Source: Patescibacteria group bacterium (GTDB lineage Bacteria > Patescibacteriota > Patescibacteriia > Magasanikbacterales > GWA2-37-8). Taken from it: DNA of 40,129 bases. A model generated the notes under the pieces. The model did not search any database. It saw only the letters and a program-made list of their open reading frames with translations, and was not told the origin of the DNA. Positions within the stretch are counted from its first letter, which is position 1; the number at the start of each line of letters is the position of its first letter. The stretch is taken from NCBI GenBank assembly GCA_004321885.1, contig SCQK01000006.1, positions 1-40,129 on the forward strand, written 5' to 3'. This document shows positions 608-38,121 of this stretch, piece after piece. Made by a program: the position numbers and the translations under genes.

Positions 608-1128
608 TCGCGGCTATCCCCTCCTTTATAAGGAGGGGATTGAGGGGAGGTAATTTTGTTCTTATCCTTCCGAATATCCGCAGCGGGCACAACGTGGGCG
701 CGATTTTTCGCACGGCCGACGGCGCCGGGATTTCAAAATTGTATTTGTGCGGTTACACGCCGCGCCCTCCGCATGTGCAAATTGATAAAGTTTCGTTAGG
801 CGCGGAAAAGTGGATGCCGTGGGAATATCACAGTCAAGCCGGATGCCTGCTTAAAAAATTAAGAAAAGAGGGGTATAATATAGTAGCGTTGGAGCAGACG
901 CCCGCGAGCGGTAATATTTTTCAATGGAAACCAAAATTTCCATTAGCGTTGGTGGTAGGCAACGAAAAGACCGGCGTGTCAAAGCCGCTGTTAAAATTAT
1001 GCGACAGCGCGGTAGAGATTCCGATGGCCGGCAAAAAGAGCAGTTTGAACGTCAGCGTGGCCGCCGGAGTGGCGATGTACTTCGTTAATTCCCCTCCCCT
1101 TTATAAGGGGAGGGTTAGGGAGGGGTAG
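586..1128 (+). CDS. SpoU/TrmH-family RNA 2'-O-methyltransferase
   Basis: ORF 568..1128 (GTG); the first ATG is at 586. Motifs VLILPNIRSGHNVGAIFRTADGAGISKLYL and C-terminal LNVSVAAGVAMYF are typical of SPOUT methylases. An N-proximal segment (618-650) and the last 12 codons (1091-1128) are copies of palindromic element A read in-frame, so the true start and end are uncertain. Confidence 0.75.
   Translation: MGKKDSVVAAIPSFIRRGLRGGNFVLILPNIRSGHNVGAIFRTADGAGISKLYLCGYTPRPPHVQIDKVSLGAEKWMPWEYHSQAGCLLKKLRKEGYNIVALEQTPASGNIFQWKPKFPLALVVGNEKTGVSKPLLKLCDSAVEIPMAGKKSSLNVSVAAGVAMYFVNSPPLYKGRVREG
618..650. repeat. palindromic element A, copy A1 (CCCCTCCTTTATAAGGAGGGG + GAGGGGAGG)
   Basis: Perfect inverted repeat 618-638; lies inside the 5' region of the SpoU ORF, 11 nt after the ruvC stop. 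Confidence 0.8.
1091..1128. repeat. palindromic element A, copy A2
   Basis: CCCCTCCCCTTTATAAGGGGAGGG + TTAGGGAGGGGTAG; forms the last 12 codons and stop of the SpoU ORF and the SD of the next gene. Confidence 0.8.
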
Positions 1129-1131
1129 AGT

Positions 1132-1857
1132 ATGCAATCCACTTTATTTATATATAAACATCTCTGCGCTCGCTTGCCGCCACTTTTTCCGACCGAGCAT
1201 TTGGAATCGGCGCGCGCGGAAATCGCCAGACTGGAAAGAGAAAAAAATACCGGCGTGGAGGACGTGGAAAACTCCATGATAAAGTTTGGCTACGAGGCCT
1301 GGCCGTGGAACCAAGCGTACAGGGAATTTTTGGAAAACGCCGAAGCCCAGGTGGGCGAGCATTTTTTACTGCCGCATCTTTCCGATGAGATGCGCGAAAA
1401 ATTTGAGGATTACCGCCACTATGGCATGGGCTTGCATGATTTGCATTCCGGCCGGTCGGCCGAGTATTTTACTTCGGACGAACGCGCTCTCTTGTGTGAA
1501 GCGCTCGTGGAAACACAAAAACAGTTGCGCGCGTATGTTGACCGCGATATTTGCGGTTTGAGCAAGAAAAAGTATCTGGCGCGAGTGAAGGAATTTGCCA
1601 GAATTTTGGAGCAGATAAAAGAAAAGATGGATGAACTGCGCGCGTTGGCAGATAAGGAAGAGGAGCATCCGGCGCTGGCCGGCGAGATTCGCCAGCGCGT
1701 GCGCTTGTTTGAACACGGGCTTTGTTTGCTGGGGCCGGATTTGGATTATGACGCGGTGTGCGGCTCAATTGACTTTTTTCATGGTCGGAGACAAGATTTA
1801 AGTAGGATGAGGGGGATAAATATTCCGAAACAGATAGATTTTTACAACCAGGTATGA
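1132..1857 (+). CDS. hypothetical protein
   Basis: 241-aa ORF; strong SD supplied by element A (GGGAGGGGTAGAGT ATG); 4-nt overlap (ATGA) with the downstream DJ-1 gene; no recognisable motif. Confidence 0.6.
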   Translation: MQSTLFIYKHLCARLPPLFPTEHLESARAEIARLEREKNTGVEDVENSMIKFGYEAWPWNQAYREFLENAEAQVGEHFLLPHLSDEMREKFEDYRHYGMGLHDLHSGRSAEYFTSDERALLCEALVETQKQLRAYVDRDICGLSKKKYLARVKEFARILEQIKEKMDELRALADKEEEHPALAGEIRQRVRLFEHGLCLLGPDLDYDAVCGSIDFFHGRRQDLSRMRGINIPKQIDFYNQV

Positions 1858-2372
1858 AAAAAGTTTTGTTTGTAATCGCTCACGAGGGATTTCGGCCGGA
1901 GGAATATTACGAGCCGAAGAAAATTTTGATGGCGGCCGGAGTGGAATTTGTTACCGCGAGCAATGCGGCCGGTATGGCCACGCCGAAATTCGGCGATGAA
2001 TTGGCGAAAGTGGATTTGGTTTTGGACGACGTGAAAACGGACGATTATAATGGAATATTTTTTGTGGGCGGGCCGGGGGCGTTGGAACATTTGGACAACG
2101 AAAAATCTTATCGGATTATCAAAGAAGCGGCGGAAAAGGGGAAAGTTTTCGGCGCTATTTGCATTTCACCAAGAATTTTGGCGCGCGCCGGAGTTTTGAA
2201 AAACAAAAAAGCCACCGGGTGGAACAAGGACAATGAATTGGGTAAGATTTTGGCGGATGCCGGCGCGAATTACATCAAGGAGTCAGTCGTCGTCGATGGC
2301 AAACTGGTGACGGCGAGCGGCCCGTCCGCGGCGCAAGAGTTTGGCAAAAAGATTTTGGATAAATTGTCGTAG
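1854..2372 (+). CDS. DJ-1/PfpI family protein (class I glutamine amidotransferase-like)
   Basis: 172 aa; nucleophile-elbow Cys in GAICISP and the overall pattern of the DJ-1/PfpI family. Confidence 0.85.
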   Translation: MKKVLFVIAHEGFRPEEYYEPKKILMAAGVEFVTASNAAGMATPKFGDELAKVDLVLDDVKTDDYNGIFFVGGPGALEHLDNEKSYRIIKEAAEKGKVFGAICISPRILARAGVLKNKKATGWNKDNELGKILADAGANYIKESVVVDGKLVTASGPSAAQEFGKKILDKLS

Positions 2373-2380
2373 TCTCCATT

Positions 2381-2689
2381 ATGGAAGTGCAATATTTTGA
2401 TGATCAACTCGAGGAATTCATCAAAAATTTGGAAGAATCGACTGTGGCTAAAGTCGTGAGAACAGTCGAGCTTTTGCGCCGATTTGGCCATCTGCTCGGG
2501 ATGCCTCATAGCAAAAAAGTTGGTAGTCATCTGTATGAATTACGCATACATGGAAAGCAGAAAGTCAGGATACTCTACACTTTTAAGGGTAGCGTCATTA
2601 TGCTTCTACATGGTTTTATCAAAAAATCTTCCAGAATTCCTACCAAAGAATTGCAAACTGCGCTCCAGAAGTTGGCGCGCTTGACATAA
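2381..2689 (+). CDS. higB: type II toxin, HigB/RelE-like (Gp49-like, COG4679 family)
   Basis: 102-aa ORF immediately upstream of an XRE-HTH gene; sequence pattern (..HLYELRIHG..VRILYTF.G..IMLLHGFIKKS) is typical of HigB/Gp49-like mRNA interferases. Confidence 0.75.
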   Translation: MEVQYFDDQLEEFIKNLEESTVAKVVRTVELLRRFGHLLGMPHSKKVGSHLYELRIHGKQKVRILYTFKGSVIMLLHGFIKKSSRIPTKELQTALQKLARLT

Positions 2690-2710
2690 TATAACATATA
2701 TGTTATATTA
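2681..2710 (+). promoter_or_regulatory. sigma70-like promoter (TTGACA-17-TATATT) overlapping a perfect 24-bp palindrome TAATATAACATATATGTTATATTA; putative HigA operator
   Basis: -35 at 2681-2686 (overlaps the higB stop), 17-nt spacer, -10 at 2704-2709; the palindrome 2687-2710 is centred in the spacer/-10; higA ATG at 2718 implies a leaderless or near-leaderless transcript. Confidence 0.55.
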
Positions 2711-2717
2711 GTTTTAT

Positions 2718-2990: not shown

Positions 2991-3012
2991 TTCCGATTTC
3001 TCTCAAATCAAA

Positions 3013-3041
3013 ACCGCGATGATTGACATCGCGGCTTTTTT
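3013..3041 (+). terminator. rho-independent terminator
   Basis: CCGCGATG-N5-CATCGCGG stem followed by CTTTTTTG. Confidence 0.7.
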
Positions 3042-3153
3042 GTATTACTAATAGTTGTTGCTCTTTGCGCGTTCCTCAATTTTGAGGAAAACCTGGGCCC
3101 CGGGCAGGGGCAAAAGGCTTTTCGGGCGATAACAAGCTTGAAAGGAGACGACC

Positions 3154-4077
3154 ATGGGTAAGAGTTATGAGGAAGTTTGGCGTGGGCTCACCGGCGGCCA
3201 GCAGGAAGCGCTTCAGCGCAAGCTTTGGCTCGCGGCTGGCGGCCAGGATACAGGTGAGGAAGGACTCGCGACCATCTTGCGAGATGAGCAGAAAATCACG
3301 CTCGTGGACGCGATAGTGAAGCTCGCGGACAAGCGCGGCCGCTGCATCCCCATTCCGGGGATGCGGGGCAGGGTCGTGGACGCCAATCGCAATTTCCGGC
3401 TTGGCCATCTCGAGATCAGCACCGTGGGCATCCTCTACAATCTTCGGCAATTTTTCGCGCCGGAGATGAAGTTTCCTTCGGAAGCGGAGTTTGCGCGGCG
3501 TGTTGCCGATCTGATCGCGCTGGCGGAGAAGGATAAGCAGACGAAGAACCTGCTCAAGGGGGCGTACTGGCCTTTGTGCTTTCCGCAACTCGCGGTTGTG
3601 GACTATGGCCGTTCGCTGGAGGAGATTTTCCTGCCGGCGGTCAAGCGTTCGTACGAGGCCGCGTTCCCCGGTCGGAATTTCAAGAACTACCGCGCGGATG
3701 AGCTGGTCGAACAGGTGACCGTCGCCGCGGGCACTCGTCACGAGATGCTCCTCGCAAAGATGGCCGAGGGTCCGGTCGTCGGCCTTTGGTTCGCCAATCC
3801 GCTCCAGGGTTTTGGCATCCATGCCGACCGCGAGCAAATCGCTGCGTTCCCCGAGAGTTTCATACTCTCTGGCGCGATTGACACCGCGACCGCGATGGTG
3901 GCTGACCCGCAGACGCTCTGTCGGAGCTACAAGACCCCCAGCTACGTCTGTGCTGCCAACGTTTGGTATCACAACAGCTCGCCGTACTTCCGGGCCGATG
4001 ACGACAAGCTCTACTTCAGCGTGGGTGTCATCGACGCCAGCGACTTCAGCTCCGGTGGTTTGCTCTTTCTCGGGTAG
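3154..4077 (+). CDS. hypothetical protein (compositionally GC-rich, probably horizontally acquired)
   Basis: 307-aa ORF with protein-like composition, preceded by AAAGGAGA SD. The opposite-strand ORF 3076..3972 is Arg-rich junk typical of the antisense of GC-rich coding DNA. The segment is visibly GC-richer than its flanks. Confidence 0.55.
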   Translation: MGKSYEEVWRGLTGGQQEALQRKLWLAAGGQDTGEEGLATILRDEQKITLVDAIVKLADKRGRCIPIPGMRGRVVDANRNFRLGHLEISTVGILYNLRQFFAPEMKFPSEAEFARRVADLIALAEKDKQTKNLLKGAYWPLCFPQLAVVDYGRSLEEIFLPAVKRSYEAAFPGRNFKNYRADELVEQVTVAAGTRHEMLLAKMAEGPVVGLWFANPLQGFGIHADREQIAAFPESFILSGAIDTATAMVADPQTLCRSYKTPSYVCAANVWYHNSSPYFRADDDKLYFSVGVIDASDFSSGGLLFLG

Positions 4078-4173
4078 TCCAGTTTAGTTGTTCCTTCCTC
4101 TTTCCCGTTCGTTCGCGAACGGGATCCCACTTGAGTTTTTATAATGATGAAGATTCAAGTGGGATGAAAAACT

Positions 4174-4205
4174 CCACCCTTTATTCCTCCCCTATAAGGG
4201 GAGGG
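4174..4205. repeat. palindromic element A, copy A3
   Basis: CCTCCCCTATAAGGGGAGG core (4186-4204), 15 nt from element B1. Confidence 0.75.
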
Positions 4206-4212: not shown

Positions 4213-5232
4213 TTAAGCAAGGGATTGCTTCGTCGCTTCGCTCCTCGCAATGACAGTAGAAGGTTTAATGGTTGAGAATTTGGCCAGCATTTTTTTGATA
4301 CCATTTTTATCCAAGATTCCTTTGAGCGAGCCGACTTCGGAAATCACTCCGCAACTATTAGCGATGCCCCAGCTTAGGGCGAGCGGGATCTCGTGTCCGT
4401 AAAAGCGAGCCGATAGATACCCGGCCGAAAAAGCGTCGCCGGCGCCGGTTTTGGCCACCACTTTTACCGGAAAACTTTCCAAGCGCCAGACCTCATCCAC
4501 GTTGCCGGCCCAGGCCCCGTTGGCCGCGTCGGTTATTACCACTTCCTTGGCGCCATCATTTAGCAGTTTACGTATCAAACCGGCGACTGATTTGGCTTTG
4601 GCCAACGTCAGGTCGCTGATTTTTTCCGCCTCTTCCAGATTCACTATTAAAACATCGGTTCGTTTCAACATCTCGCGTACTTTTGGCAAGGCGTTTTTAA
4701 TTTGGAAACTGCCCGGATTAAAAGCTAAGCGCGCTGTGCCGTGTTTGTCCAAAAAAGCCAATAATTTTTCTTGCAAATTTTCAAACCCTTCGCTCAAGCT
4801 GGTGTAATAAATCCAGTCAACCGGCGGCACGGTTCGCGGCCAGTCGTATTTTCGTTTTTGATGGTAAGATAAAATAGTGCGTTCGCCCTTGAAATTCAAA
4901 ATAATGGAATAGCGGGTAAGAGTCCTGGGGTCTTGGCTGGTCAAACTTGTGTCCACGTTGTTTTTTTTCAGCTCTTCCAAGATCAGCTTGCCGTTGGCGT
5001 CGGTGCCTAGCGAAGTAATGGCCGCGCATTTGAGCCCCAGCTTGGTAGCGCCCACAGCCACATTAGCCGCGTTGCCTCCGAGTGATTGAAAGCTGCCGGT
5101 AATGGGCACCTTACTGGCGTAGTCCAAACATAACTGACAATTTTCGTGATTAACATCGCATTGGACCGTTGCGTCATCTATAAAAACATGAGTGTCAATC
5201 ACCGCGTCGCCGATGGTAATGAGGTTGTACAT
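4213..5232 (-). CDS. PfkB-family carbohydrate kinase (ribokinase-like)
   Basis: 339 aa; N-terminal GxxxxD and C-terminal TGAGDAFSAGYL PfkB signatures; SD GGGAGGGG (part of element A4) 7 nt upstream of the ATG; the last ~13 codons (VIARSEATKQSLA) are encoded by palindromic element B1, so the native C-terminus is probably shorter. Confidence 0.8.
   Translation of the reverse strand: MYNLITIGDAVIDTHVFIDDATVQCDVNHENCQLCLDYASKVPITGSFQSLGGNAANVAVGATKLGLKCAAITSLGTDANGKLILEELKKNNVDTSLTSQDPRTLTRYSIILNFKGERTILSYHQKRKYDWPRTVPPVDWIYYTSLSEGFENLQEKLLAFLDKHGTARLAFNPGSFQIKNALPKVREMLKRTDVLIVNLEEAEKISDLTLAKAKSVAGLIRKLLNDGAKEVVITDAANGAWAGNVDEVWRLESFPVKVVAKTGAGDAFSAGYLSARFYGHEIPLALSWGIANSCGVISEVGSLKGILDKNGIKKMLAKFSTIKPSTVIARSEATKQSLA
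4221..4256. repeat. palindromic element B, copy B1 (one arm)
   Basis: GGGATTGCTTCGTCGCTTCGCTCCTCGCAATGACAG; forms the C-terminal codons of the PfkB kinase ORF. Confidence 0.75.
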
Positions 5233-5239: not shown

Positions 5240-5297
5240 CCCCTCCCTCGCCCTCCTCCCGAAACAAGTTCGGGACAAGCTCTTGTAAAGGGGAGGG
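5240..5297. repeat. palindromic element A, copy A4 (with an internal 25-nt insertion forming its own hairpins)
   Basis: CCCCTCCCTCGCCCTCCTCCC-GAAACAAGTTCGGGACAAGCTCTTG-TAAAGGGGAGGG; supplies the SD for the PfkB kinase (minus strand). Confidence 0.7.
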
Positions 5298-6252: not shown

Positions 6253-6911
6253 ATATTTGTCATTGCAGTGAGCTCTTTATACGTTTTTTTAATGTCTTTC
6301 GCCATCACAAGGGCGCTGCCGACGCAGAAAATATCCACGCCCCATGATTTTATTTCGGCGATGTTGCTACTTTTAATCCCCCCGTCCACGGCGATGAGCG
6401 GCCGATACCCCCTCCCCTGTCCTCCCTCTAAAAGGGGGAGGGAAACCAATGTCTTAACTTTCTCTTTCACCTCGGGCAGAAATTTCGCTCCTTGTTTGCC
6501 CGGGCGCACTGTTAGAAACAAAACCAAATCCACTAAATTCAAATATGGCTCTATGGCCGACAGCGGCGTTTCCGGATTAAGAGCGATGCCCGCTTGCCAG
6601 CAGTTACCATGGATGGCGGCGATGATTTTTTCGGGATCGTCAGCTGTTTCAATATGAAATATCACCCGAAAAACATTTTTTACTTCTTTCCATTTTTCCA
6701 TTTCCGCCAGCGGGTCGGCCGCCATCAAATGCAATTCCCATTTCAAACCGCTTTTCAGGCCGTTGATTTTTTCAATATCGCCGAATGATTTATTCGGCAC
6801 AAAGACCCCGTCCATCACGTCTATCTGGGCGTAATCGCAGACGCCTTTCAGTTTTTTCGCTTGCGTCGCGAATTCGTCAAAAGAGGAAACAAGTATGGTC
6901 GGGATAATCAT
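6246..6911 (-). CDS. rpe: ribulose-phosphate 3-epimerase
   Basis: 221 aa; IIPTILVSSF...IDVMDGVFVPN motif and C-terminal VDGGIK; an in-frame copy of element A (6408-6444) encodes an inserted LEGGQGRGYRP segment. Confidence 0.8.
   Translation of the reverse strand: MIIPTILVSSFDEFATQAKKLKGVCDYAQIDVMDGVFVPNKSFGDIEKINGLKSGLKWELHLMAADPLAEMEKWKEVKNVFRVIFHIETADDPEKIIAAIHGNCWQAGIALNPETPLSAIEPYLNLVDLVLFLTVRPGKQGAKFLPEVKEKVKTLVSLPLLEGGQGRGYRPLIAVDGGIKSSNIAEIKSWGVDIFCVGSALVMAKDIKKTYKELTAMTNIC
6408..6444. repeat. palindromic element A, copy A5, in-frame inside rpe
   Basis: CCCCCTCCCCTGTCCTCCCTCTAAAAGGGGGAGGG; translated on the minus strand as LEGGQGRGYRP within ribulose-phosphate epimerase. Confidence 0.75.
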
Positions 6912-9135: not shown

Positions 9136-9164
9136 TTGACAAAAAGCGTCAAAAATCATATAAT
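9136..9164 (+). promoter_or_regulatory. consensus sigma70 promoter for ileS
   Basis: TTGACA (9136-9141), 17-nt spacer, TATAAT (9159-9164). Confidence 0.6.
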
Positions 9165-14073: not shown

Positions 14074-14091
14074 TTTTAAAAAGGCAGGAAA

Positions 14092-14127
14092 AACGCCGCC
14101 CGAAGTTGACAGGCGGCGTTTTTTTTA
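14092..14127 (+). terminator. rho-independent terminator
   Basis: AACGCCGCC-N11-GGCGGCGTT followed by TTTTTTTAG. Confidence 0.7.
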
Positions 14128-14469: not shown

Positions 14470-15549
14470 ATGCTGAGAATCCAAAATCGCGGCCGGGGGA
14501 ATCGCCTTGACCGCCGACTAGCCAATCTTCCGTCCGGAGTCTGGTCCAAAATCGCGCAGGTAGATGAACTTAAGGGCCAGTGGATTGCCGGGGCTGAACT
14601 TTCGTCCCAGGTTTTGGGCCGCTTAAAGCGGTCGGTTTTGATTACCTCCGCCGGTGCTTCTACTCGCATTGAAGGCGCGCGACTATCCGACGAAGACGTC
14701 GAAAAAATGATGCGCGGCATTGATATTCAGAAATTCAGAGATCGTGACAAGCAAGAAGTGAAAGGGTATCATGAGCTTCTGGGGAATATGTTTGATTCTT
14801 GGAAGAGTTTGCAGTTCTCCGAGAACGCCATCAAACATTGTCACAAAGAACTCCTCAAATATGTGGAGAAAGACGAGGCGCATCGGGGCAGATACAAGAA
14901 GCAAGAGAATCGCGTGCAGATGGTAAATGCGGCCGGACAACCCGTGAGCGTGCTTTTTGATACCACACCGGCATATTTGGCGCCCAAAGAAACGCAGGAG
15001 CTCGCACAGTGGACGCGGAAGGCTCTGGAAACCGGCCAACATCATCCGTTGTTAGTCATCGGTAACTTTGTCGTTGAGTTCTTGGCCATCCATCCTTTCA
15101 CCGATGGTAACGGGCGTCTGTCGCGCGTTCTCACCAATCTGCTATTGCTCAAAGCGGGGTACCTTTATGTTCCATACGTATCGCACGAGAAGCTCATCGA
15201 GGACAACAAGCCAGATTACTATGTAGCCCTGCGGCGCAGCCAGAGGACGTTCAGGTCAAAGAGAGAAGACATTGCCCCGTGGCTCCATTTTTTTCTGGAT
15301 GTCGCGTTCAAGCAGGCGCAAATGGCGGTTGACTTGCTGTCCAAAGAAAACATTGAAAAACTGTTATCGCCAAAGCAACTGCAAGTCTGGCAGTACTTGC
15401 AGGGAGTAATTGAAGCGACAGCCGGAAAGATAGCCAAAGCCACAGGCGTCGCGCGTCCAACTATCAACCAGGCAGTGGACAAGCTCTTACGCTTGAAGAA
15501 GGTGGAACGCATCGGCCTTGGGCCCACGACAAGATACCGGAAGTTATGA
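14470..15549 (+). CDS. fic: Fic/DOC family protein with a C-terminal winged-HTH
   Basis: 359 aa; canonical Fic motif HPFTDGNGRLSR; C-terminal KIAKATGVARPTINQAVDKLLRLKKVERIG HTH; GC-rich relative to the genome. Confidence 0.85.
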   Translation: MLRIQNRGRGNRLDRRLANLPSGVWSKIAQVDELKGQWIAGAELSSQVLGRLKRSVLITSAGASTRIEGARLSDEDVEKMMRGIDIQKFRDRDKQEVKGYHELLGNMFDSWKSLQFSENAIKHCHKELLKYVEKDEAHRGRYKKQENRVQMVNAAGQPVSVLFDTTPAYLAPKETQELAQWTRKALETGQHHPLLVIGNFVVEFLAIHPFTDGNGRLSRVLTNLLLLKAGYLYVPYVSHEKLIEDNKPDYYVALRRSQRTFRSKREDIAPWLHFFLDVAFKQAQMAVDLLSKENIEKLLSPKQLQVWQYLQGVIEATAGKIAKATGVARPTINQAVDKLLRLKKVERIGLGPTTRYRKL

Positions 15550-16764: not shown

Positions 16765-16768
16765 CACA

Positions 16769-16800
16769 AAAGAACCCCGATTAAATCGGGGTTCTTTTTG
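16769..16800 (-). terminator. rho-independent terminator (bidirectional hairpin) downstream of the AI-2E transporter gene
   Basis: AGAACCCCGA-TTAAA-TCGGGGTTCT followed by TTTTTG. Confidence 0.7.
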
Positions 16801-24351: not shown

Positions 24352-24388
24352 AAAATGTCATTCCCCCGACTTAGTCGGGGGAATCCAG

Positions 24389-26442: not shown

Positions 26443-26667
26443 ATGAATGTAGCTCTCAATATCAAAAATTTATTATGGGATGTTGACGCAAAAAAAGTGG
26501 ATGCAAGCAAACACAAAAGTTTTTTAATTTCGCGAATTTCTGAAAAAGGCGGTACGCGAGAAATAGCCTGGTTGCGCCGCCAATATTCGGATAAAGACAT
26601 CAAGAAAATCGTGGCGAAAAGCCGCAATGTTTCGGCAAAGACAAAAAATTTTTGGAAGCTGTTTTAA
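26443..26667 (+). CDS. small protein (74 aa) translationally coupled to the AbiEii-like nucleotidyltransferase; putative antitoxin/partner
   Basis: Lys-rich 74-aa ORF directly downstream of a consensus promoter; its stop TAA is immediately followed by the ATG of the next gene (TAATATG). Confidence 0.5.
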   Translation: MNVALNIKNLLWDVDAKKVDASKHKSFLISRISEKGGTREIAWLRRQYSDKDIKKIVAKSRNVSAKTKNFWKLF

Positions 26668-26668
26668 T

Positions 26669-27298
26669 ATGTTTTATCCAGAGGCGCTGACCGCGGAATC
26701 AATCGCTTTAATAAAAAAAATTAATGCGAGCAAATGGCTGTCTGATTTTTATTTGGCCGGCGGTACGGGTTTGGCTTTATGGTATGGCCATCGGCAATCG
26801 GTTGATTTGGATTTTTTTAGAAAAAGCGATATTGCCACCAAGCAATTGATAAAAAAATTGTCTTCGCTCGGCAGATTCAAATTATTGAATGAAGAAGAAA
26901 ACACGGTGGAGGGGATACTGGAAAAGGTGAAAGTTAGTTTCATGACTTATCCGTATGGTTTGTTGCGCAAGCGTCAGCCGTATGATGGCGTTATCTTTTT
27001 AGCAGAACCATTGGATATCGCCGTCATGAAAGTCGGAGCGATCGCCGACAGAAATACGAAGAAAGATTTTATTGACCTGTATGTTTTTTTACGGCGCGAG
27101 AACATGAGTTTAAAAAATTTGTTATCGCATCTGCGAAAAAAATTCAGCCGCGTGAATTACGATATTTTTCATTTATACAAATCCCTTGTCTATTTTGAGG
27201 ATGCCGACAAAGAACCTATGCCGAGGATGTTTATTGATTTAAAATGGGAAAAGGTCAGGCGATTTTTTAAAGACGAGGTTAGGAAGCTGGTGGCATGA
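26669..27298 (+). CDS. nucleotidyltransferase of the AbiEii/AbiGii (DUF1814-like) toxin family
   Basis: ORF 26627..27298, start re-chosen at 26669; LAGGTGLALWYGHRQSVDLDFF matches the GGTAL..HR.S.DLDF nucleotidyltransferase signature of AbiEii-type proteins. Confidence 0.6.
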   Translation: MFYPEALTAESIALIKKINASKWLSDFYLAGGTGLALWYGHRQSVDLDFFRKSDIATKQLIKKLSSLGRFKLLNEEENTVEGILEKVKVSFMTYPYGLLRKRQPYDGVIFLAEPLDIAVMKVGAIADRNTKKDFIDLYVFLRRENMSLKNLLSHLRKKFSRVNYDIFHLYKSLVYFEDADKEPMPRMFIDLKWEKVRRFFKDEVRKLVA

Positions 27299-27625: not shown

Positions 27626-30600
27626 ATGGTAAATAACCTCGCCACCAAGACATTTGTTCTGGATACTGACTTCAAATACGCGCCGGAAACCGGTTTGCGT
27701 TTTAAGCGGCATTTTACCAAAGCAGGCGCTAATCCTTATGATTTGTTCACTTACGAGTTGCGCTCGTCCCTTATCCGCGAGCCCAGCGGCCAGATTGTGT
27801 TTGAAATGAAAGAGGTGGAAGTGCCTGTTACCTGGTCCCAGGTGGCCACCGACATTTTAGCGCAAAAATATTTTCGCAAGGCCGGAGTGCCGAAATATAA
27901 TCCGGACGGCTCGCCCATGCTTGGGGCCGACGGGCTACCGGTACTCGGCTGCGAAACCAGCATTAAGCAGGTGGCGCACCGAATGGCCGGCACCTGGCGG
28001 TATTGGGGAGAGAAGTACGGCTATTTTGCCTCGGCCGAGGACGCGCAGGTGTTTTACGACGAGCTGGCCTACATGCTCATCGCCCAGATGGCCGCGCCCA
28101 ACTCGCCCCAGTGGTTCAACACCGGTTTGTACTGGGCTTATGGCATCAATGGCCCGGCCCAGGGGCATTATTATACCGACCATAACACGGACATCACCCA
28201 GCTTTCGCCTGATGCCTATTCACGAAGTCAGGCGCACGCGTGTTTTATCCAAGGAGTCAAAGATGACTTGGTAAATGAAGGAGGAATTATGGATTTATGG
28301 CTGCGCGAAGCGCGGATATTTAAATATGGTTCGGGCACTGGCACAAATTTTTCGGCTTTGCGCGGCGCCGGCGAAACACTTTCCGGCGGCGGCACCTCCT
28401 CGGGCTTGATGAGCTGGCTTAAAATCGGGGACCGCGCGGCCGGGGCCATTAAATCCGGCGGCACCACGCGCCGCGCCGCCAAAATGGTAATCCTAAACAT
28501 TGACCATCCGGACATTGAAGAATTTATTGACTGGAAAGTGCGCGAGGAAAAAAAAGTGGCGGCTCTGATCGCCGCCGGCTATGATAATGCCTATGAGGGC
28601 GAGGCCTACCAGACCGTTTCCGGACAAAATTCAAACAACTCGGTGCGCGTGTCCCAGGAATTTTTGGAAGCCGTGGAAAGTGACAGTGACTGGAAATTAA
28701 CCTGGCGCACCGACCCCGACAAATTCAAAGCTGTTAAGGCAAAAAAATTGTGGGATAAAATCGCTTCGGCGGCCTGGTCCTGCGCCGACCCGGGCGTGCA
28801 ATTTGACACCAATATCAACGACTGGCACACCTGCCCAAAATCGGGCCGTATCAATGCCAGCAATCCTTGCGCGGAATTTATGTACCTGGACTCAAGCGCT
28901 TGTAATCTCGCTTCCATCAACCTGGCGCATTTTTATGACGCGGATAATTTGACCTTTGATGCAGACGGATTTAAGTACACTTCGCGCTTGTGGACTGTGG
29001 TTTTGGAAATCAGTATTTTGATGGCTCAATTTCCAAGCTATGAGATTGCCAGAACCACTCAAGACACCCGCAGTCTGGGTTTGGGCTATGCCAATATCGG
29101 CAGTGTGCTGATGACCGCGGGCCTGCCCTATGATTCGCCCGAGGCCATGGCTTTCGCCGGCGCTGTTACCGCCCTCATGACCGCCGAGTCGTTCGCCGCC
29201 TCGGCCGAGCTGGCCAAAAATTTGGGGGCGTTCAAGTATTTTGCCGCTAATCGCGATGACATGTTGCGTGTGGCGCGCAATCACCGGCGCGCGGCTTACA
29301 GCGCCCCGGCGGAAGAGTACGAAGGCATCGCCATTAAGCCCGCCGGCATAAATGAACAGTACGCGCCGGCTTATCTGCTGGCCGAGGCGCGCGCGGCCTG
29401 GGACAGGGCCCTGGAGCTGGGGGAAAAATACGGCTTTCGCAACGCCCAGCTCACCCTGCTCGCGCCTACCGGCACCATCGGCCTGGTAATGGACTGCGCC
29501 ACCACCGGCGTGGAGCCGGATTTCGCTTTGGTGAAATTTAAAAAATTGGCCGGCGGTGGATATTTTAAGATTGTCAACGAATCCGTGCCCGTGGCTTTGC
29601 GCGTGCTGGGCTACAGCGACTTGCAGATAAATGATGTAGTGAATTATTTGCGCGGACACTCCACTTTGCGTCAGGCCCCGCATATCAATCATCAAACTTT
29701 GCTGGAGAAAGGCTTTACGGCCGATGAGCTGGACAAATTGGAAAAAGCCCTGCCCATGAGTTTTGAATTGCAGTTTGCCCTAAATGTTTGGACACTGGGT
29801 GAGGACTGCCTGAAACGGCTGGGCTTTACCAGCGAGCAGTATAATGACAATAATTTTAATTTGCTGGCGGCGCTGGGATTTTCCGCCGATGATATAGCGG
29901 CGGCCAATGAATATGTTTGCGGGGCCATGACCATAGAAGGCGCGCCGCATTTGCGCAAAGAGCATTACGCGGTGTTTGACACGGCCAACAAGAACGGCAA
30001 AAAAGGCCAGCGCTACATTCATTACCTCGGCCACATCCGCATGATGGCCGCGGTCCAGCCGTTTCTTTCCGGCGCCATTTCTAAAACCATAAACATGCCG
30101 AACGAGGCGACGATAGACGACGTCAAAACCGCTTACGTGGCCTCATGGAAACTTGGGCTCAAGGCCGTTGCTTTGTATCGTGATGGGTGCAAGCTGTCGC
30201 AACCCTTGTCCGCGAAATCAAATAAGAAAAAAGAGGACAAGGCTGAGGAGCCGGTCAATGCCGCGCCCGCCCAGTATGTTTTGACCGATAAAAGCGACCA
30301 CGTGATTCGTCAGATGATTTCTGAAACCCAGGCCATGACCAAGTACGCGCACGACGGCTCCAGCCAGGGCACGAAAATTTACATTCACGGCGAACAGCGC
30401 AAGATGCCGTACAAGAGAAGCGGGCTGACGATTAAAGCCAAGGTCGCGGGCCAAAAAATATTCTTGCGCACCGGCGAGTATCCGGACGGCAAACTGGGCG
30501 AGATATTTATTGATATGTATAAAGAGGGCGCGGCTTTTCGTAGTTTGCTCAATTGTCTGGCCATCTCCATTTCCACGGGCCTGCAATACGGCATACCATT

Positions 30601-31069
30601 GGAAGAATACGTGGAAAAATTTACTTTTACGCGCTTTGAGCCCAGCGGCATGACCGACCACCCGAACGTGCGCTCGTGCACCTCCATCATTGATTTTGTC
30701 TTCCGCGTGCTGGGCATGGAATATCTGGGGCGGATGGATTTTGTGCAGGTGAAACCGGTCGGCATCCAAAAAAACCGGGCCGAGCAGATGGCGAAATTGG
30801 CGGCCGAGAAAGCCGGGCAGAGATTGCTGGAGTTAAACGGGGCGGAGACGGAAATTGAAGAAGTGGAAGAAATAGTTCAGCCGAGTTTGCCCAATATGCC
30901 GCGGACAGACGCGGCGGGAAAAGGCGAGGTGACTTCCGACGCAATGAACCAGCAACTCGCGGGCATGATGGGCGACGCGCCGCCGTGCGCTACTTGCGGG
31001 CATGTCACTATACGAAACGGCAGTTGCTATAAGTGTTTGAATTGCGGGAGTACGACCGGGTGTTCTTGA
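27626..31069 (+). CDS. nrdJ: adenosylcobalamin-dependent ribonucleotide reductase (class II)
   Basis: 1147 aa; N-terminal ATP-cone-like region, RNR active-site Cys/Asn/Glu blocks (NPCAEFMYLDSSACNLASINL), C-terminal Zn-ribbon CATCGHVTIRNGSCYKCLNCGSTTGC typical of class II RNR. Confidence 0.9.
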   Translation: MVNNLATKTFVLDTDFKYAPETGLRFKRHFTKAGANPYDLFTYELRSSLIREPSGQIVFEMKEVEVPVTWSQVATDILAQKYFRKAGVPKYNPDGSPMLGADGLPVLGCETSIKQVAHRMAGTWRYWGEKYGYFASAEDAQVFYDELAYMLIAQMAAPNSPQWFNTGLYWAYGINGPAQGHYYTDHNTDITQLSPDAYSRSQAHACFIQGVKDDLVNEGGIMDLWLREARIFKYGSGTGTNFSALRGAGETLSGGGTSSGLMSWLKIGDRAAGAIKSGGTTRRAAKMVILNIDHPDIEEFIDWKVREEKKVAALIAAGYDNAYEGEAYQTVSGQNSNNSVRVSQEFLEAVESDSDWKLTWRTDPDKFKAVKAKKLWDKIASAAWSCADPGVQFDTNINDWHTCPKSGRINASNPCAEFMYLDSSACNLASINLAHFYDADNLTFDADGFKYTSRLWTVVLEISILMAQFPSYEIARTTQDTRSLGLGYANIGSVLMTAGLPYDSPEAMAFAGAVTALMTAESFAASAELAKNLGAFKYFAANRDDMLRVARNHRRAAYSAPAEEYEGIAIKPAGINEQYAPAYLLAEARAAWDRALELGEKYGFRNAQLTLLAPTGTIGLVMDCATTGVEPDFALVKFKKLAGGGYFKIVNESVPVALRVLGYSDLQINDVVNYLRGHSTLRQAPHINHQTLLEKGFTADELDKLEKALPMSFELQFALNVWTLGEDCLKRLGFTSEQYNDNNFNLLAALGFSADDIAAANEYVCGAMTIEGAPHLRKEHYAVFDTANKNGKKGQRYIHYLGHIRMMAAVQPFLSGAISKTINMPNEATIDDVKTAYVASWKLGLKAVALYRDGCKLSQPLSAKSNKKKEDKAEEPVNAAPAQYVLTDKSDHVIRQMISETQAMTKYAHDGSSQGTKIYIHGEQRKMPYKRSGLTIKAKVAGQKIFLRTGEYPDGKLGEIFIDMYKEGAAFRSLLNCLAISISTGLQYGIPLEEYVEKFTFTRFEPSGMTDHPNVRSCTSIIDFVFRVLGMEYLGRMDFVQVKPVGIQKNRAEQMAKLAAEKAGQRLLELNGAETEIEEVEEIVQPSLPNMPRTDAAGKGEVTSDAMNQQLAGMMGDAPPCATCGHVTIRNGSCYKCLNCGSTTGCS

Positions 31070-31772: not shown

Positions 31773-31828
31773 GTTGCCGCAACAATATCACAAATTAAAG
31801 CGCGGATCAAGGACACCGCTGCGATTTT

Positions 31829-31837
31829 ATGATATAA
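31829..31837 (+). promoter_or_regulatory. extended -10 promoter (TGaTATAAT) for the pilin-like cluster
   Basis: TGnTATAAT ~60 nt upstream of the 31899 ATG; element A8 lies between the promoter and the start codon. Confidence 0.4.
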
Positions 31838-31850
31838 TGTTAGCGCATAT

Positions 31851-31898: not shown

Positions 31899-33704
31899 AT
31901 GCCAAGGAGAGATAGAAAAAAAATCGCGCGCGGATTTAGTTTGTTGGAAGTGGTGCTTTCCGTCGGCATTTTTGTTTTGTTCGCTTTTGGCATTTACGGC
32001 GGCATCAATTTGATATTCAAAATTGTTTACCAGTCGCGCATGCGCATTTTAGAAACCGCGATTTTGGCCGAGAAATTGGAAATCGCGCGCAACCTGCCCT
32101 TTGACAGCGTGGGCATAATAAACGGCTCGCCCGCGGGCCTGCTGCCCCACACCACGACCACCATCAGAAACGGGCAGGTCTTCACCCTAATTACCACGGT
32201 GAGAAACATAGACGACCCTTTTGACGGCCTGGCCGGCGGCTCGCCCAACGACACTTCGCCGGCTGATTACAAGTTAGTGGAAATTTCCGCCATTTGTCAG
32301 ACCTGTCTGCAAAAAATCCCGGTAATTTTAAGCACCACTGTGGCGCCGAAAAATTTGGAAGGCGCCACCAGCAACGGCTCGCTTTTTATTCAGGTGTTTG
32401 ACGCCCAGGGTTTGCCCGTGGTCGGCGCCAATGTGAGCGCCACCAATACCGCGCGCGCGCCAAACGTGGTGATACAAGACACCACCGACAATACCGGCTG
32501 GCTAAAAATTATAGACACCACCACCGGCACGCAAAGCTATTATATTTCCGTCACTAAAAACGGCTTTTCGCGCGATTATTCGGTTGACGCGGCTTCCATA
32601 GGGGCCACGCCCATCAAGCCTCCGTCCACAGTTGTTACTCAAACCGTCACCGAGGTTAGTTTTTCCATAGACCGCGTCGGCTCAATGAATTTACACACCA
32701 TCAATTCAGGCTGTTCGGCCATCGCCAATGCCGATTTTAATATCAGAAGCGAACGGCTCCTTGGCACTAATCCGGATGTTTACAAATACAATCAAAATTT
32801 AACCACGAACGGCTCGGGCAATTACGCCTTTGCCAGCATGGAATGGGGCAAATATCATTTCAGCGCCACCAATACGCCCTATGATATCGCCGGCTCCATT
32901 CCCATGCTGCCGGCGGATTTGGCGCCGGGCGCGGCCCAGGACGTCTCTTTGATTTTAACCTCGCAATCCCCCAATTCATTGCTGGTGAAAGTAAAAGACG
33001 CGGGTACTGGCCTGCCGCTTTCCGACACGTTGGTTCATCTTACCAAAAGCGGCTATGATGAAAGTAAAACAACCGGTTATGGATTTATGCGCCAAACCGA
33101 TTGGTCCGGCGGAAGCGGCCAGGTAACCAGCACAGACCCGGCGCGCTATTTTGCCGATGACACCAACGTGGACAACAATTCTCCGGCCGGGGATTTGAAA
33201 TTAAAAAAAGCCGGCCCTGATTATCTAAACAGCGGCTGGCTGGAGTCTTCCACTTTTGATCTGCAAACGCAAGTTGATTTTCATAGTTTAATTTTTCAGC
33301 CGGTCACCCAGCCGCCGCAGACCGGGACCGAACCCATAAAATTTCAGATGGCCGCCACCAATACCCCCAGTTCCAGCGGCTGGGTTTATCTGGGCCCGGA
33401 CGGCGCCACCAGCACTTATTATGTTTCCACCAGCAGTTTGGTGTGGAGCGGCTTGGATAACAATCGCTATCTGCGTTACAAAGTATTTTTGAGCACGGCT
33501 GACACAGGCTATACTCCATTGCTGTCCGAAGTCTCCATCACCTATACCAATAACTGCGTGCCGCCCGGGCAGGTGTTTTTTGGCGGGCTTGGCGCCGGCA
33601 GTTACACATTGGAAGTTTCGCGAAATGGCTATATCACCAACAGCGGGCTGGTGGATGTGGCCGGCGCCACCGACGCGGTGGTAAATTTGTCTCCGAATAT
33701 ATGA
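31899..33704 (+). CDS. large type IV pilin-like protein (prepilin-type N-terminal cleavage/methylation domain)
   Basis: 601 aa; class III signal KKIARG|FSLLEVVLSVGIFVLFAF with Gly-1 and Glu+5, then a Thr/Ser/Asn/Gly-rich beta-type region of ~550 aa. Confidence 0.75.
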   Translation: MPRRDRKKIARGFSLLEVVLSVGIFVLFAFGIYGGINLIFKIVYQSRMRILETAILAEKLEIARNLPFDSVGIINGSPAGLLPHTTTTIRNGQVFTLITTVRNIDDPFDGLAGGSPNDTSPADYKLVEISAICQTCLQKIPVILSTTVAPKNLEGATSNGSLFIQVFDAQGLPVVGANVSATNTARAPNVVIQDTTDNTGWLKIIDTTTGTQSYYISVTKNGFSRDYSVDAASIGATPIKPPSTVVTQTVTEVSFSIDRVGSMNLHTINSGCSAIANADFNIRSERLLGTNPDVYKYNQNLTTNGSGNYAFASMEWGKYHFSATNTPYDIAGSIPMLPADLAPGAAQDVSLILTSQSPNSLLVKVKDAGTGLPLSDTLVHLTKSGYDESKTTGYGFMRQTDWSGGSGQVTSTDPARYFADDTNVDNNSPAGDLKLKKAGPDYLNSGWLESSTFDLQTQVDFHSLIFQPVTQPPQTGTEPIKFQMAATNTPSSSGWVYLGPDGATSTYYVSTSSLVWSGLDNNRYLRYKVFLSTADTGYTPLLSEVSITYTNNCVPPGQVFFGGLGAGSYTLEVSRNGYITNSGLVDVAGATDAVVNLSPNI

Positions 33705-33713: not shown

Positions 33714-33799
33714 CTGTCATTGCGAGGACCCGCCCAGGGCGGGGACGAAGCAATCTCTTGCAATTACGCATGGGATTGCTTCGCTTCGCTCGCAATGAC
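33714..33799. repeat. palindromic element B, complete copy B4 (both arms)
   Basis: GTCATTGCGAG-GACCCGCCCAGGGCGGGGAC-GAAGCAATC ... GGATTGCTTCGCTTCGCTCGCAATGAC; the arms are reverse complements; lies between pilin genes 1 and 2. Confidence 0.8.
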
Positions 33800-35768: not shown

Positions 35769-35804
35769 TTGAAAAGCCGGGAGGATTTTGCTATACTTAT
35801 CTAT

Positions 35805-36674
35805 ATGGCCAAATCAATAAAAAAACTTGTCGTGCCGGTCGCGGGCCTGGGCACCCGTTTTTTGCCAGCCACCAAGGCCCAGCCCAAAGAAATGATGCCG
35901 GTGGTGGACAAGCCGATTATTCAGTATGTGGTGGAAGACGCGGTGGCCTCGGGCATCACTGATATTATTTTGGTTACGGGCCCCAGCAAGCGGGCCGTGG
36001 AAGACCATTTCAGCCCGAATTACGAACTTATCAATTTATTAAAAAAACAAAAAAAAGAGGCCGTGGCCGAGGAAGTGAAAAAAATTTCCGACCTGGCCAA
36101 CTTCATTTTCATCCGCCAAAAAGGGCCGTATGGCAACGGCACGCCGGTGCTTTGCGCCAAAGCGCTTCTGGGAGATGAGCCGTTTGCCGTGATGTGGGGC
36201 GATGAATTTTTCTACTCGCCGGATAAGCCCCATCTGAAACAGCTTATAGATGTATATGAAAAATATGGTGATCCGGTTATCACAGCCCACGAAACCGACG
36301 ATGAGGGCACAAGCAAGTATGGTATTATTGACGGCGTTGAAGTAGAGAAGGGTGTTTATCAGGTAAAAAAAATAGTAGAAAAACCCGGCCCGCAAAAGAC
36401 CCCGTCTCATTTGGGTATGTTTGGATCTTTTATTTTAACAAATGATGTCTTTGAAGCTTTGGAAAATACCAAGCTGGGTAAAGACGGAGAATTGTGGCTG
36501 GCCGATGCTAACGCCAAGGTGCTTAAAAAACGTCCATATTATGCTTGCTTGGTAGATGGCCAGTATTATGATACTGGCTCCAAGCTCGGGTATTTGAAAG
36601 CGAACGTGGAGTTCGCTTTGCGGGACAAAAAATTGGGCAAAGAATTTAAAAAATATCTTAAAAGCATTTTGTAA
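35805..36674 (+). CDS. galU: UTP--glucose-1-phosphate uridylyltransferase
   Basis: ORF 35769..36674 (TTG); the ATG at 35805 gives MAKSIKKLVVPVAGLGTRFLPATKAQPKEMMPVVDKP, the canonical GalU N-terminus. Confidence 0.85.
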   Translation: MAKSIKKLVVPVAGLGTRFLPATKAQPKEMMPVVDKPIIQYVVEDAVASGITDIILVTGPSKRAVEDHFSPNYELINLLKKQKKEAVAEEVKKISDLANFIFIRQKGPYGNGTPVLCAKALLGDEPFAVMWGDEFFYSPDKPHLKQLIDVYEKYGDPVITAHETDDEGTSKYGIIDGVEVEKGVYQVKKIVEKPGPQKTPSHLGMFGSFILTNDVFEALENTKLGKDGELWLADANAKVLKKRPYYACLVDGQYYDTGSKLGYLKANVEFALRDKKLGKEFKKYLKSIL

Positions 36675-36683
36675 AAAATTGGT

Positions 36684-38075
36684 ATGCCGAAATTTACAAA
36701 ACTACTCCCTTTGTTTTTGCTAACGGGTTTTTTGATTCTCGCCGGTTTTGGCTGCAAGGGCATTACCAAAGAGCAGGCCGCGGCCATCAGGCCGGTGGCT
36801 TTGGAATATTGGACAGTGGCCGATGACGTGGATGAAATGCAAAAGCTGATAGACCAGTACCGGGCCGCGCGGCCGTATCTCACCGTGAACCTGCGCCAAC
36901 TGCGCGGCAATGAGCTTTATCCGCGTCTGCTGGAGGCGCTTTCCGAAGACAAGGGGCCGGACATTGTTTCAGTAAGCAACAAGTGGCTGCGTTTGTTTTT
37001 GCCCAAACTGGCCCCTATGCCAGATAGTGTCAAAGATGCCACCGTAATTGTAACCAAGAATCAGCTGGGCGGCACTGACACGGTAATAAAAAATATTACC
37101 CAAAGTCTGCCTGGCGCCATAAACATTGACCGCGAATACGTGCGCGCAGTGAAAAACGACGTGGTAGTAAACGGCCATGTCTATGGCCTGCCTTTGTCTT
37201 TTGACACCATGGCTCTTTTTTATAATAAAGACATGCTGGACAAAGCCGGCATTGCCGAGCCGCCCAAAACCTGGGAGGACTTGCAAAAACAGGTCAAAAA
37301 ATTAACGCGCTTCAACAAGCAGACCGGCAAAATCACGCAAGCGGGCGCGGCGCTCGGCAACGGCAACGTGGATTCGTTTGATGATTTACTTTATCTATTA
37401 TACAGGCAGAGTGATTTGGATTTTACCGACGCCAACGGACAGGTTAGATTTAATCTGGTGAGGGCCGGACAGGAAAACAGCGATGTTAATCCTTTTAAGG
37501 TGGTGGGGTTTTTCACGGATTTTGCCAATCCCGAGCGCGACACCTACTCGTGGAACAAAGATATGGGCGGGGCCTTGGAGGCCTTTGTTAGCGGCAAGAC
37601 CGCTTTTATGCTGGGCTACAATTTTCAGCTTGATTTAATAAAAGCGCGCGCCCCCGGGCTTAATGTGGAAGTGACGCCTATGCTGCAGCTGAACCCCGAG
37701 GCCCCGGCCAACGCGGCCAGCTATTTTGTGCAGACGGTTATCGGCAAATCCAAGCGCCAAAACGAGGCCTGGGGATTGCTCAATTATTTGGCGCATTCGC
37801 GCGCGACCAAAGATTATTTGGACCGTAGCGGTCGGCCTTCGGCTTTGCGCGCGTACATAGAGGCGCAAAAACAAGACCCGAAATTGGCGCCTTTCGCGGC
37901 CCAGGTTTTGGCAGCCGAGAATTGGTACCGCGGGACAGATTATCCGGCGGCCATGACAGCCATCAGCGAAATGCTGGATGACTGGCTAAAACCCGCGTTG
38001 CCAGACGCCAATCCGGATGAAGTAAAACAAAATATTCTAAACGCCGCCGCGGCCAAGGTAAATCAAACGTTGTAG
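36684..38075 (+). CDS. ABC transporter substrate-binding protein, family 1 (sugar-type), probable lipoprotein
   Basis: 463 aa; signal peptide ending ...LAGFGCKG (Cys anchor); FYNKDMLDKAGIAEPPKTWEDL and overall pattern of extracellular solute-binding protein family 1; no permease or ATPase genes follow in the window. Confidence 0.75.
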   Translation: MPKFTKLLPLFLLTGFLILAGFGCKGITKEQAAAIRPVALEYWTVADDVDEMQKLIDQYRAARPYLTVNLRQLRGNELYPRLLEALSEDKGPDIVSVSNKWLRLFLPKLAPMPDSVKDATVIVTKNQLGGTDTVIKNITQSLPGAINIDREYVRAVKNDVVVNGHVYGLPLSFDTMALFYNKDMLDKAGIAEPPKTWEDLQKQVKKLTRFNKQTGKITQAGAALGNGNVDSFDDLLYLLYRQSDLDFTDANGQVRFNLVRAGQENSDVNPFKVVGFFTDFANPERDTYSWNKDMGGALEAFVSGKTAFMLGYNFQLDLIKARAPGLNVEVTPMLQLNPEAPANAASYFVQTVIGKSKRQNEAWGLLNYLAHSRATKDYLDRSGRPSALRAYIEAQKQDPKLAPFAAQVLAAENWYRGTDYPAAMTAISEMLDDWLKPALPDANPDEVKQNILNAAAAKVNQTL

Positions 38076-38086
38076 TTGGTCGGGAA

Positions 38087-38121
38087 TCCCTCCCCTATTA
38101 GGGGAGGGGCAAGGGGAGGGG
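38087..38121. repeat. palindromic element A, copy A9 (SD of TrbC-like paralog 1)
   Basis: CCCTCCCCTATTAGGGGAGGG + GCAAGGGGAGGGG, 7 nt before the ATG at 38128. Confidence 0.8.

Follow-up and report, generated by a model that had tools for sequence, protein, structure and literature searches.

A 40,129-nt stretch from the genome assembly of a Patescibacteria group bacterium (contig SCQK01000006.1 in full, positions 1 to 40,129 of the forward strand; the whole stretch is referred to as the window) carries ordinary housekeeping and pilus genes of a genome with about 50% GC, the IleS protein of which is 67-71% identical to Magasanikbacteria-like sequences. Dispersed among these genes are nine copies of a short, GC-rich inverted repeat, which the initial annotation had described as a palindrome of a Shine-Dalgarno (SD) sequence and its complement placed at translation starts. 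We verified a GC-rich inverted repeat at each of the nine sites, and a covariance model (R1), built from the nine window copies and six copies from outside, recovered exactly these nine. Eight of them scored 39-56 bits (E 1e-11 to 1e-17), the ninth, which bears an insertion, scored 14 bits, and nothing else in the 40-kb window exceeded about 7 bits.

The nine copies and their three-box architecture

The repeat unit is about 36 nt long (35-37 nt in the window) and asymmetric, and it consists of three boxes rather than two: a pyrimidine arm (CCCTCCCC), an AT loop of 5-7 nt and the complementary purine arm (GGGGAGGG) are followed, after a spacer of 3-5 nt, by a second G-box (GGGAGGGG) and the dinucleotide TA. 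Both orientations of this unit occur, and its reverse complement reads C-box, spacer, C-arm, loop and G-arm (C1-C2-loop-G in the following). The arms of the window copies measure 7-9 nt, and the two-arm 9+9 consensus under which the repeat had initially been listed matches no copy literally; the strong SD-like GGAGG listed with it is present in every copy. Mean column identity among the copies is 75%, and folding yields stable stems (-18 to -20 kcal/mol). The three-box pattern had four matches in the window versus none in 100 shuffles. The copies are listed below with the strand on which the unit reads from the C-arm to TA.

618-652, plus strand (copy 1): in the 5' part of spoU, reading CCCCTCC-TTTATAA-GGAGGGG-ATTGA-GGGGAGG-TA; R1 45 bits
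1091-1127, plus strand (copy 2): replaces the 3' end and stop codon of spoU, adding SPPLYKGRVREG and a stop; R1 56 bits
4170-4205, minus strand (copy 3): between the convergent genes 3154-4077 (plus strand) and pfkB (minus strand); R1 39 bits
5238-5297, minus strand (copy 4): 60 nt, between the stop (5305) of a thioredoxin-reductase-like gene and the start (5232) of pfkB
6406-6442, minus strand (copy 5): in frame in rpe (ribulose-phosphate 3-epimerase), translated as SLPLLEGGQGRG; R1 43 bits
9174-9208, minus strand (copy 6): the plus strand reads C1-C2-loop-G and fills the 5' leader of ileS; R1 51.5 bits
25426-25461, plus strand (copy 7): the minus strand reads C1-C2-loop-G in the ruvB leader; R1 45.5 bits
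31850-31885, minus strand (copy 8): the plus strand reads C1-C2-loop-G in the leader of gene 31899-33704; R1 53.6 bits
38088-38123, plus strand (copy 9): between the stop (38075) of a solute-binding-protein gene and a gene for a protein resembling type IV secretion system pilins (38128); R1 42.6 bits

Individual copies depart from this scheme in instructive ways. Copy 3 alone in the window has a T-type third box (GGGTGGAG) and lacks the terminal TA, and the arms of copy 7 (CTCTCCCC/GGGGAGAG) represent a compensated variant. The loop of copy 4 contains, as had been annotated, an internal insertion, which comprises about 24 nt (at 5257-5285), forms a hairpin and is unique in the window. At gathering thresholds, Rfam detected four tRNAs in the window and nothing on the repeats. 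With regard to features of miniature inverted-repeat transposable elements, the repeat itself is one hairpin plus a box, its flanks are A/T-rich and no consistent duplication was seen; its ends run from the pyrimidine arm to GGGG-TA and lack a GTAG or CGTC tag. We rejected the copies as intrinsic terminators, since they are devoid of T-runs and only 4170-4205 passes a lax scan; canonical terminators were found elsewhere in the window, at 14089-14123 and 16768-16798. A further hairpin at 24360-24384, a perfect 12+12 stem (ATTCCCCCGACT-t-AGTCGGGGGAAT) between ruvB and the small gene downstream, is terminator-like; it passes the pyrimidine/purine hairpin filter and is not a three-box element.

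The copies are insertions that relatives lack

For comparison we used three syntenic loci of relatives, in which the gene order is, as in the window, RuvC-SpoU-g240...PfkB-TrxR-Rpe-RpiB...IleS. Each of these loci gave zero to one weak R1 match per 23 kb, as opposed to nine copies in the window. The weak matches (18874 in L123 and 18263 in L122) were rejected as family members, being different hairpins in the long spacer downstream of gatB. This spacer (L123 18385-19000; L122 18213-18381) looks structured and possibly encodes a non-coding RNA. The RuvC/SpoU/g240 junctions, including the one now taken by copy 2, measure merely 1-5 nt or overlap in the relatives, whereas an element of 35-37 nt is present in the window. 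The interval of copy 4 holds small open reading frames (ORFs) in the relatives, and their ileS leaders are free of both the element and an SD.

Three of the nine copies (618, 1091 and 6406) lie in coding sequence and are translated, two of them in spoU and one in rpe. When SpoU was aligned with its counterparts from the three relatives, copy 1 corresponded to an in-frame insert of 14 residues (AAIPSFIRRGLRGG) near the N-terminus, and in the Rpe alignment 8-9 extra residues, equal to the translated element, appeared exactly at copy 5. Since the element is missing from the orthologous junctions and leaders of all three relatives, these positions do not represent conserved regulatory sites, and its absence there together with the in-frame inserts identifies the copies as insertions; the initial view of a dispersed family is supported, with insertion as its origin. 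On these comparative grounds, our data show that the repeat entered this Magasanikbacteria-related lineage by insertion, at junctions, in leaders and in frame in two genes.

Related hairpins occur in many phyla and retain their pairing

In scans of two collections, the three-box pattern was applied to species genomes and the AT-loop palindrome alone to metagenomes, and together they yielded 240 listed loci. Each scan returned at least 120 loci with many phyla represented. For the genome scan, in which the listed matches are mostly from high-GC Proteobacteria, a GC-aware estimate for the three-box pattern predicts about 100 matches by chance, and the count nevertheless reached at least 120. Even though the metagenomic pattern required the palindrome alone, 85 of the 126 metagenomic palindromes listed also had the third box. 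This box is a G-run broken by T (54 cases), A (33) or C (1); its spacer is mostly 3-4 nt, and TA comes next in 46 of 88 cases. Among 125 distinct members, 97.6% of the stem cells were paired, nine of the ten pairs contained compensatory changes and double-change cells numbered 99, compared with 17.7 in shuffles. The covariation shows that the hairpin is under selection, its pairing being kept family-wide by compensatory changes.

Phages were considered as a vector for spread and rejected, as the palindrome is rare in viral contigs (three matches). In Devosia and related Alphaproteobacteria (L011, L069, L086 and L118) we observed inverted doublets spaced 60-110 nt apart with conserved flanks, which are REPIN-like and unlike the single units of the window.

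Family hairpins flank genes for DUF559 nucleases

An all-against-all comparison of the ORFs from the 240 element-selected loci revealed three recurrent families that occur in more than ten loci, namely ABC ATPases, response regulators and a protein of about 120-140 aa, while the next clusters were housekeeping proteins. The small protein belongs to DUF559 (PF04480; E 1e-29 to 1e-43), and its only solved relative is 3HRL (E 2e-17). RAYT or another transposase was rejected as a partner, none being present in the window or recurrent in the 240 listed loci. A profile search of these loci detected 19 DUF559 genes, and 18 of them had a family hairpin within 200 nt upstream. The usual layout is arm-loop-arm-spacer-G-box-TA, then ATG...DUF559...stop, then TA-C-box-spacer-arm-loop-arm, which means that the gene is bracketed by inverted copies, and the gene-proximal G-box is often found 1-12 nt before the DUF559 ATG.

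To control for bias, we chose seven loci by DUF559 protein identity alone, comprising Patescibacteria, Gracilibacteria, two contigs with gut or Bacteroidales context, cyanobacteria and one contig with 62% GC. Family hairpins were located upstream of the gene in six of the seven and downstream in six of the seven, while the background density was 0.07-0.43 hairpins per kb. The arm sequence varies by lineage (CCTCCCC, CTCTCC, TTCCCC or CTCCCC), and window copy 2 is identical at 36 of 37 positions to an element upstream of a DUF559 gene (locus L208). Ten metagenome strains of one GAF-DUF559-RRF locus (L247-L256), with spacers of 283-379 nt upstream and 205-567 nt downstream, differ in the number of flanking elements, which indicates recent gain or loss of copies. 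The contigs that carry DUF559 homologues are in many cases below 1 kb, which would be expected of repeats that break assembly. Six further, cultured genomes were included, and full-length R1 matches flank the DUF559 gene in S. meliloti, Deinococcus psychrotolerans (where the locus lies between paaD and paaZ), Sphingomonas, N. gonorrhoeae and E. coli. Collectively, these co-occurrences show an association, across many other genomes, between DUF559 genes and the family to which the window copies are assigned. Open-access papers and preprints that mention DUF559 or ycjD, the E. coli gene described below, did not contain a link to repeats, and a DUF559-repeat link analogous to REP/RAYT therefore appears to be undescribed. 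Publications matching the literal repeat sequences were confined to human or G-quadruplex work.

Relationship to BoxC and other known repeats

The DUF559 gene of E. coli K-12 is ycjD (NC_000913.3 1351039-1351760; locus L272 5040-5761). About 170 nt downstream of ycjD lies CCCCTCGCCCCTCTGGGGAGAGGGTTAGGGTGAGGGG, which is the published BoxC copy eco:9_BoxC and is recognized by R1 with 29.1 bits (E 4e-8); besides this copy, degenerate three-box copies are also found downstream of the gene. A BoxC query gave a median of 16 matches per genome in 5426 E. coli genomes. BoxC was reportedly first described by Bergler et al. in 1992, upstream of envM (now fabI). It is given as 56 bp with about 32 copies and no assigned function in Bachellier et al. 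1999, as that work is cited in PMC2267715, which itself lists 22 BoxC copies. In other E. coli phylogroups the ycjD site is taken by the eefRABCD operon (PMC12817139).

BoxC and the window repeat are alike in their layout, which in the published BoxC sequences is CCCCTCACCC-TAA-CCCTCTCCCC-loop-GGGGCGAGGGG, that is C1-TAA-C2-loop-G. Both are dispersed, BoxC being mostly intergenic, and BoxC has neither a known function nor a known mobilising enzyme. The window repeat differs from BoxC in its length of 35-37 nt (versus about 50-56 bp), in its AT-only loops of 5-7 nt and in having CCTCC/GGAGG instead of CTCTCC/GAGAGG arms along with an A-type third box, hence the SD/anti-SD reading. It also differs in its location at start codons and inside genes of a Patescibacteria genome with about 50% GC. 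Judged by architecture, the window repeat is a divergent relative of BoxC-type three-box repeats and not the enterobacterial family itself.

The three-box system shares with REP/REPIN-RAYT the short, GC-rich, high-copy palindromes, the lineage-specific arms and a nuclease gene bracketed by inverted copies (PMC2817692, PMC3116915, PMC3733652). However, REP carries a GTAG/CGTC tag (PMC3733652), which the three-box repeat lacks, and while RAYT is an HUH Y1 transposase, DUF559 is a PD-(D/E)XK Vsr-like nuclease (PF04480). Moreover, the asymmetric third box is without counterpart in REP, and the window copies are single units and not doublets. Rickettsia palindromic elements, as summarised from Ogata et al. 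2000 in PMC3184786, resemble the window repeat as selfish palindromes that lie in frame in protein genes and add a peptide; as far as that summary describes them, they differ in being 105-146 bp long, restricted to Rickettsia and unrelated in sequence, and in lacking an SD-like core as well as an associated nuclease gene. Neisseria REP2, which is located directly upstream of genes and contains a promoter, a ribosome-binding site (RBS) and an ATG, and mycobacterial MIRUs, which lie between operon cistrons (PMC3184786), are precedents for repeats that supply or preserve translation signals, although both differ from the window repeat in sequence and architecture, and REP2 is longer with its own promoter. 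As to the nuclease, the DUF559 clade has been grouped with Vsr and the group I intron homing endonuclease I-Bth0305I (PMC3424549), and a selfish, homing-type role therefore has precedent. Caulobacter VsrA, on the other hand, has been discussed as a T:G mismatch repair enzyme (PMC12907096).

Placement relative to start codons and Shine-Dalgarno usage

Four copies (618, 1091, 5238 and 38088) are located at or just past the end of the upstream gene and read arm-loop-arm-G-box on the local coding strand. Three others, in the opposite reading, fill leaders (ileS, ruvB and gene 31899) 9-12 nt past promoter-like -10 boxes: copy 6 starts 9 nt past a 12/12 sigma-70-type promoter match (9136-9164), copy 7 starts 12 nt past a promoter-like site (25502-25474) and copy 8 starts 11 nt past a TG-extended -10 site (31810-31838). 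The remaining two are the copies between convergent genes and inside rpe. No promoter is contained within the repeat, and the three upstream promoter regions have only the consensus hexamers in common.

Six copies are close to start codons, as originally proposed, with 6, 7, 6, 11, 13 and 6 nt between the last G and the ATG, and the ATGs of g1132, pfkB and ileS were confirmed as conserved N-termini by orthologue alignment. At three of these starts it is the third box, outside the main hairpin, that precedes the ATG: GGGAGGGG 6 nt before ATG 1132 in copy 2, the third box of copy 4 7 nt before the pfkB ATG and GGGGAGGGG 6 nt before the ATG of gene 38128 in copy 9. In the other three the G-arm itself is start-proximal, 6 nt before the ileS ATG at 9215, 11 nt before that of ruvB and 13 nt before that of gene 31899. 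The proposal that the folded element hides the SD thus applies to 9174, 25426 and 31850, where folding places the SD inside the stem (with a mean unpaired probability of 0.20 for the SD region at ileS), and not to 1091, 5238 and 38088. The G-box of copy 1 is not followed by any in-frame start codon.

The element was also said to supply the only recognisable RBS at these six starts, and each does have a strong SD-like box. The absence of another RBS is, however, the norm here: among the 32 element-free genes of the window, an SD core of at least 4 nt was present at -20 to -5 in only four, and GGAGG in none. The genes of the relatives are likewise SD-poor, their ileS and pfkB, which lack an SD, included. 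Because SD scarcity is the norm in this genome, a lone recognisable RBS is not evidence of function. Several window genes begin right past promoter-like -10 boxes and could have a short leader or none. Of the metagenomic family members that could be oriented (n=76), a long ORF follows at SD spacing after four in one reading and after three in the other, or about 5%, and placement at start codons is therefore not a property of the family.

Interpretation and alternatives

Considering the insertion pattern, the shared architecture and the family-wide pairing, we regard it as probable, at roughly 0.7, that the nine copies belong, as non-autonomous members, to a widespread BoxC-type selfish three-box repeat family. 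The DUF559 nuclease would maintain or mobilise such repeats, as RAYT does REPs, and the window copies may be relics, or else solo ends or derivatives on which a DUF559 gene located elsewhere in the genome acts in trans. The GGAGG would then be the structural or recognition box of the element itself, doubling as the RBS of the nuclease gene and presumably not designed by the host. In a compact, SD-poor genome, the surviving start-adjacent copies may be those whose G-box permits translation of the downstream gene, which would amount to tolerance or exaptation, and effects on host expression, whether by a 5'-terminal stem-loop, an intercistronic hairpin or a strong SD, would be secondary.

Several observations weigh against this interpretation. 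The 40-kb window contains no transposase or nuclease candidate and no DUF559 gene, the last searched for with tblastn, so that mobilisation in the source genome is only putative; adjacency to DUF559 genes is a correlation. The flanking pair in Deinococcus is inverted relative to most other cases. Neither a target-site duplication nor an empty/filled site within the same species was found, and the relatives are distant, so that the gain in this lineage is deduced mainly from the in-frame inserts and tight junctions. Furthermore, all six copies with a co-oriented downstream gene end 6-13 nt from the ATG, and the orientation split is perfect, with three C1-C2-loop-G copies after promoter-like sites versus four opposite copies at operon-internal positions (n=7; about 3%, or 1 in 35, by chance). 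Such order in orientation and spacing exceeds random insertion and could reflect host function or strong selection, and the split and the SD-like spacing in six of six cases make secondary host effects possible.

Much of the same evidence bears on the idea that the copies are dedicated translational riboregulators, in which the hairpin hides the SD until temperature, a helicase, a protein or an upstream ribosome opens it. Six of the nine copies are positioned 6-13 nt before real start codons, three leader copies keep the SD in a stem of -18 to -23 kcal/mol, with a low unpaired probability in the case of ileS, these three begin a few nt past predicted transcription starts, and the copies provide the sole GGAGG-type SDs of the window. 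Yet the orthologous leaders and junctions of three relatives are free of the element, with ileS and pfkB leaders that have no SD at all; three copies sit within genes and a fourth is flanked by convergent genes; the genes served (ileS, ruvB, pfkB, the pilin-like gene and others) are unrelated; the start-proximal G-box is outside the main stem in three of six cases; about 5% of the family precedes a start codon; and this host rarely uses SDs. We therefore consider dedicated riboregulators improbable, and the initial preference for translational-control hairpins over REP-like elements is not supported in view of the absence from relatives, the intragenic copies, the rarity before starts and the BoxC-type architecture. 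Hairpins that benefit the host through mRNA stability or processing, either as 3' protective or as 5'-terminal stem-loops, would be compatible with a selfish origin. Four copies lie 6-11 nt past, or overlap, an upstream stop codon, three are at the extreme 5' end of predicted transcripts, the stems are stable, and REP and PU-BIME have been reported as mRNA stabilisers (PMC2267715); but the positions are not conserved in relatives, intragenic copies are unsuited to such a role and stems of 8-10 bp that lack a U-tract do not qualify as terminators, which makes this explanation rather unlikely as the primary one. Palindromic operators for the DNA-binding regulator of a regulon would account for the perfectly palindromic cores and for the three copies just past -10 boxes, a classic repressor position. 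The other six copies, however, are not near promoters, three of them being in coding sequence, the genes concerned are unrelated, and the asymmetric third box is conserved along with the palindrome. Since, in addition, arms that are lineage-specific across phyla and change in a compensatory manner speak for a hairpin rather than a duplex recognition site, operators are very improbable.

The third box could also point to a non-B structure, with the G-arm and third box forming a G-quadruplex or a purine-motif intramolecular triplex that affects replication or transcription or is the target of a nuclease. The copies at 1091 and 38088 contain four G3-4 tracts with loops of 1-3 nt; in copy 9 the G-arm and third box make up a canonical four-tract G-quadruplex motif, and its predicted folding energy is -49 kcal/mol when G-quadruplexes are allowed, as opposed to -28 kcal/mol for the hairpin. 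In 87 of 88 cases the base that interrupts the third box is A or T, which fits G.G:C, A.A:T and T.A:T triplets, and because a T-type box cannot form Watson-Crick pairs with the C-arm, an alternative hairpin does not explain the third box. Against this, the argument draws on sequence alone, families with CTCTCC arms are poor in G-quadruplex potential, single central interruptions cannot discriminate mirror from direct symmetry, and structure and simple recognition by a protein look the same in the sequence; we give this reading a slim chance. Repetitiveness alone would favour an assembly or vector artefact repeated identically, which had been named as grounds for discarding the family. The copies, however, differ from one another and are embedded in intact reading frames, a sequence identical to copy 9 was found in an independent Logan assembly (contig L121), and relatives of the family are present in finished genomes including that of E. 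coli K-12, so that the chance of an artefact is negligible.

For the window, reading the copies as BoxC-type selfish repeats guards against over-reading a selfish element as a designed translational switch, and insertion accounts for three oddities of the annotation: SpoU is extended, Rpe has an additional loop, and very strong SDs stand isolated in an SD-poor genome. A broader proposal, which we advance tentatively and hold to be possible rather than likely, is that BoxC-type repeats and DUF559 (YcjD-like, Vsr-fold) proteins constitute an unrecognised pan-bacterial system, the PD-(D/E)XK counterpart of REP/RAYT, in which a triplex or G-quadruplex of purine arm and third box would be the nuclease target and the A-type G-box may have been exapted in SD-poor Patescibacteria as a portable strong RBS, for example of ileS and ruvB. 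We know of no DUF559 protein with a demonstrated substrate of the three-box type. If the DUF559 link is functional, a repeat family that has lacked a mechanism for decades would gain a candidate enzyme and a widespread domain of unassigned function would gain a role, both testable in E. coli; it would also account for the origin of BoxC, and it would explain why G/C-tract hairpins break metagenome assemblies and create spurious ORF extensions.

Other features of the window

A second dispersed hairpin family, GTCATTGCGAG-N(8-30)-GAAGCAATC, is found at 4223-4254 (minus strand), 33716-33755 (plus strand), about 39700-39730 (plus strand) and about 39760-39800 (minus strand). The copy at 4223 is read through by pfkB, adding 11 residues (VIARSEATKQSLA) that are absent in relatives. 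Toxin-antitoxin-like genes comprise a Gp49-like gene with a helix-turn-helix gene (2381-2990), a Fic-domain gene (14470-15549) and a DUF6922 gene with an AbiEii nucleotidyltransferase gene (26443-27298). The class II ribonucleotide reductase encoded at 27626-31069 is long (1147 aa) and includes a TSCPD domain; its barrel domain is matched in two stretches, and this split match together with the TSCPD domain suggests that an insertion, possibly an intein, may be present.

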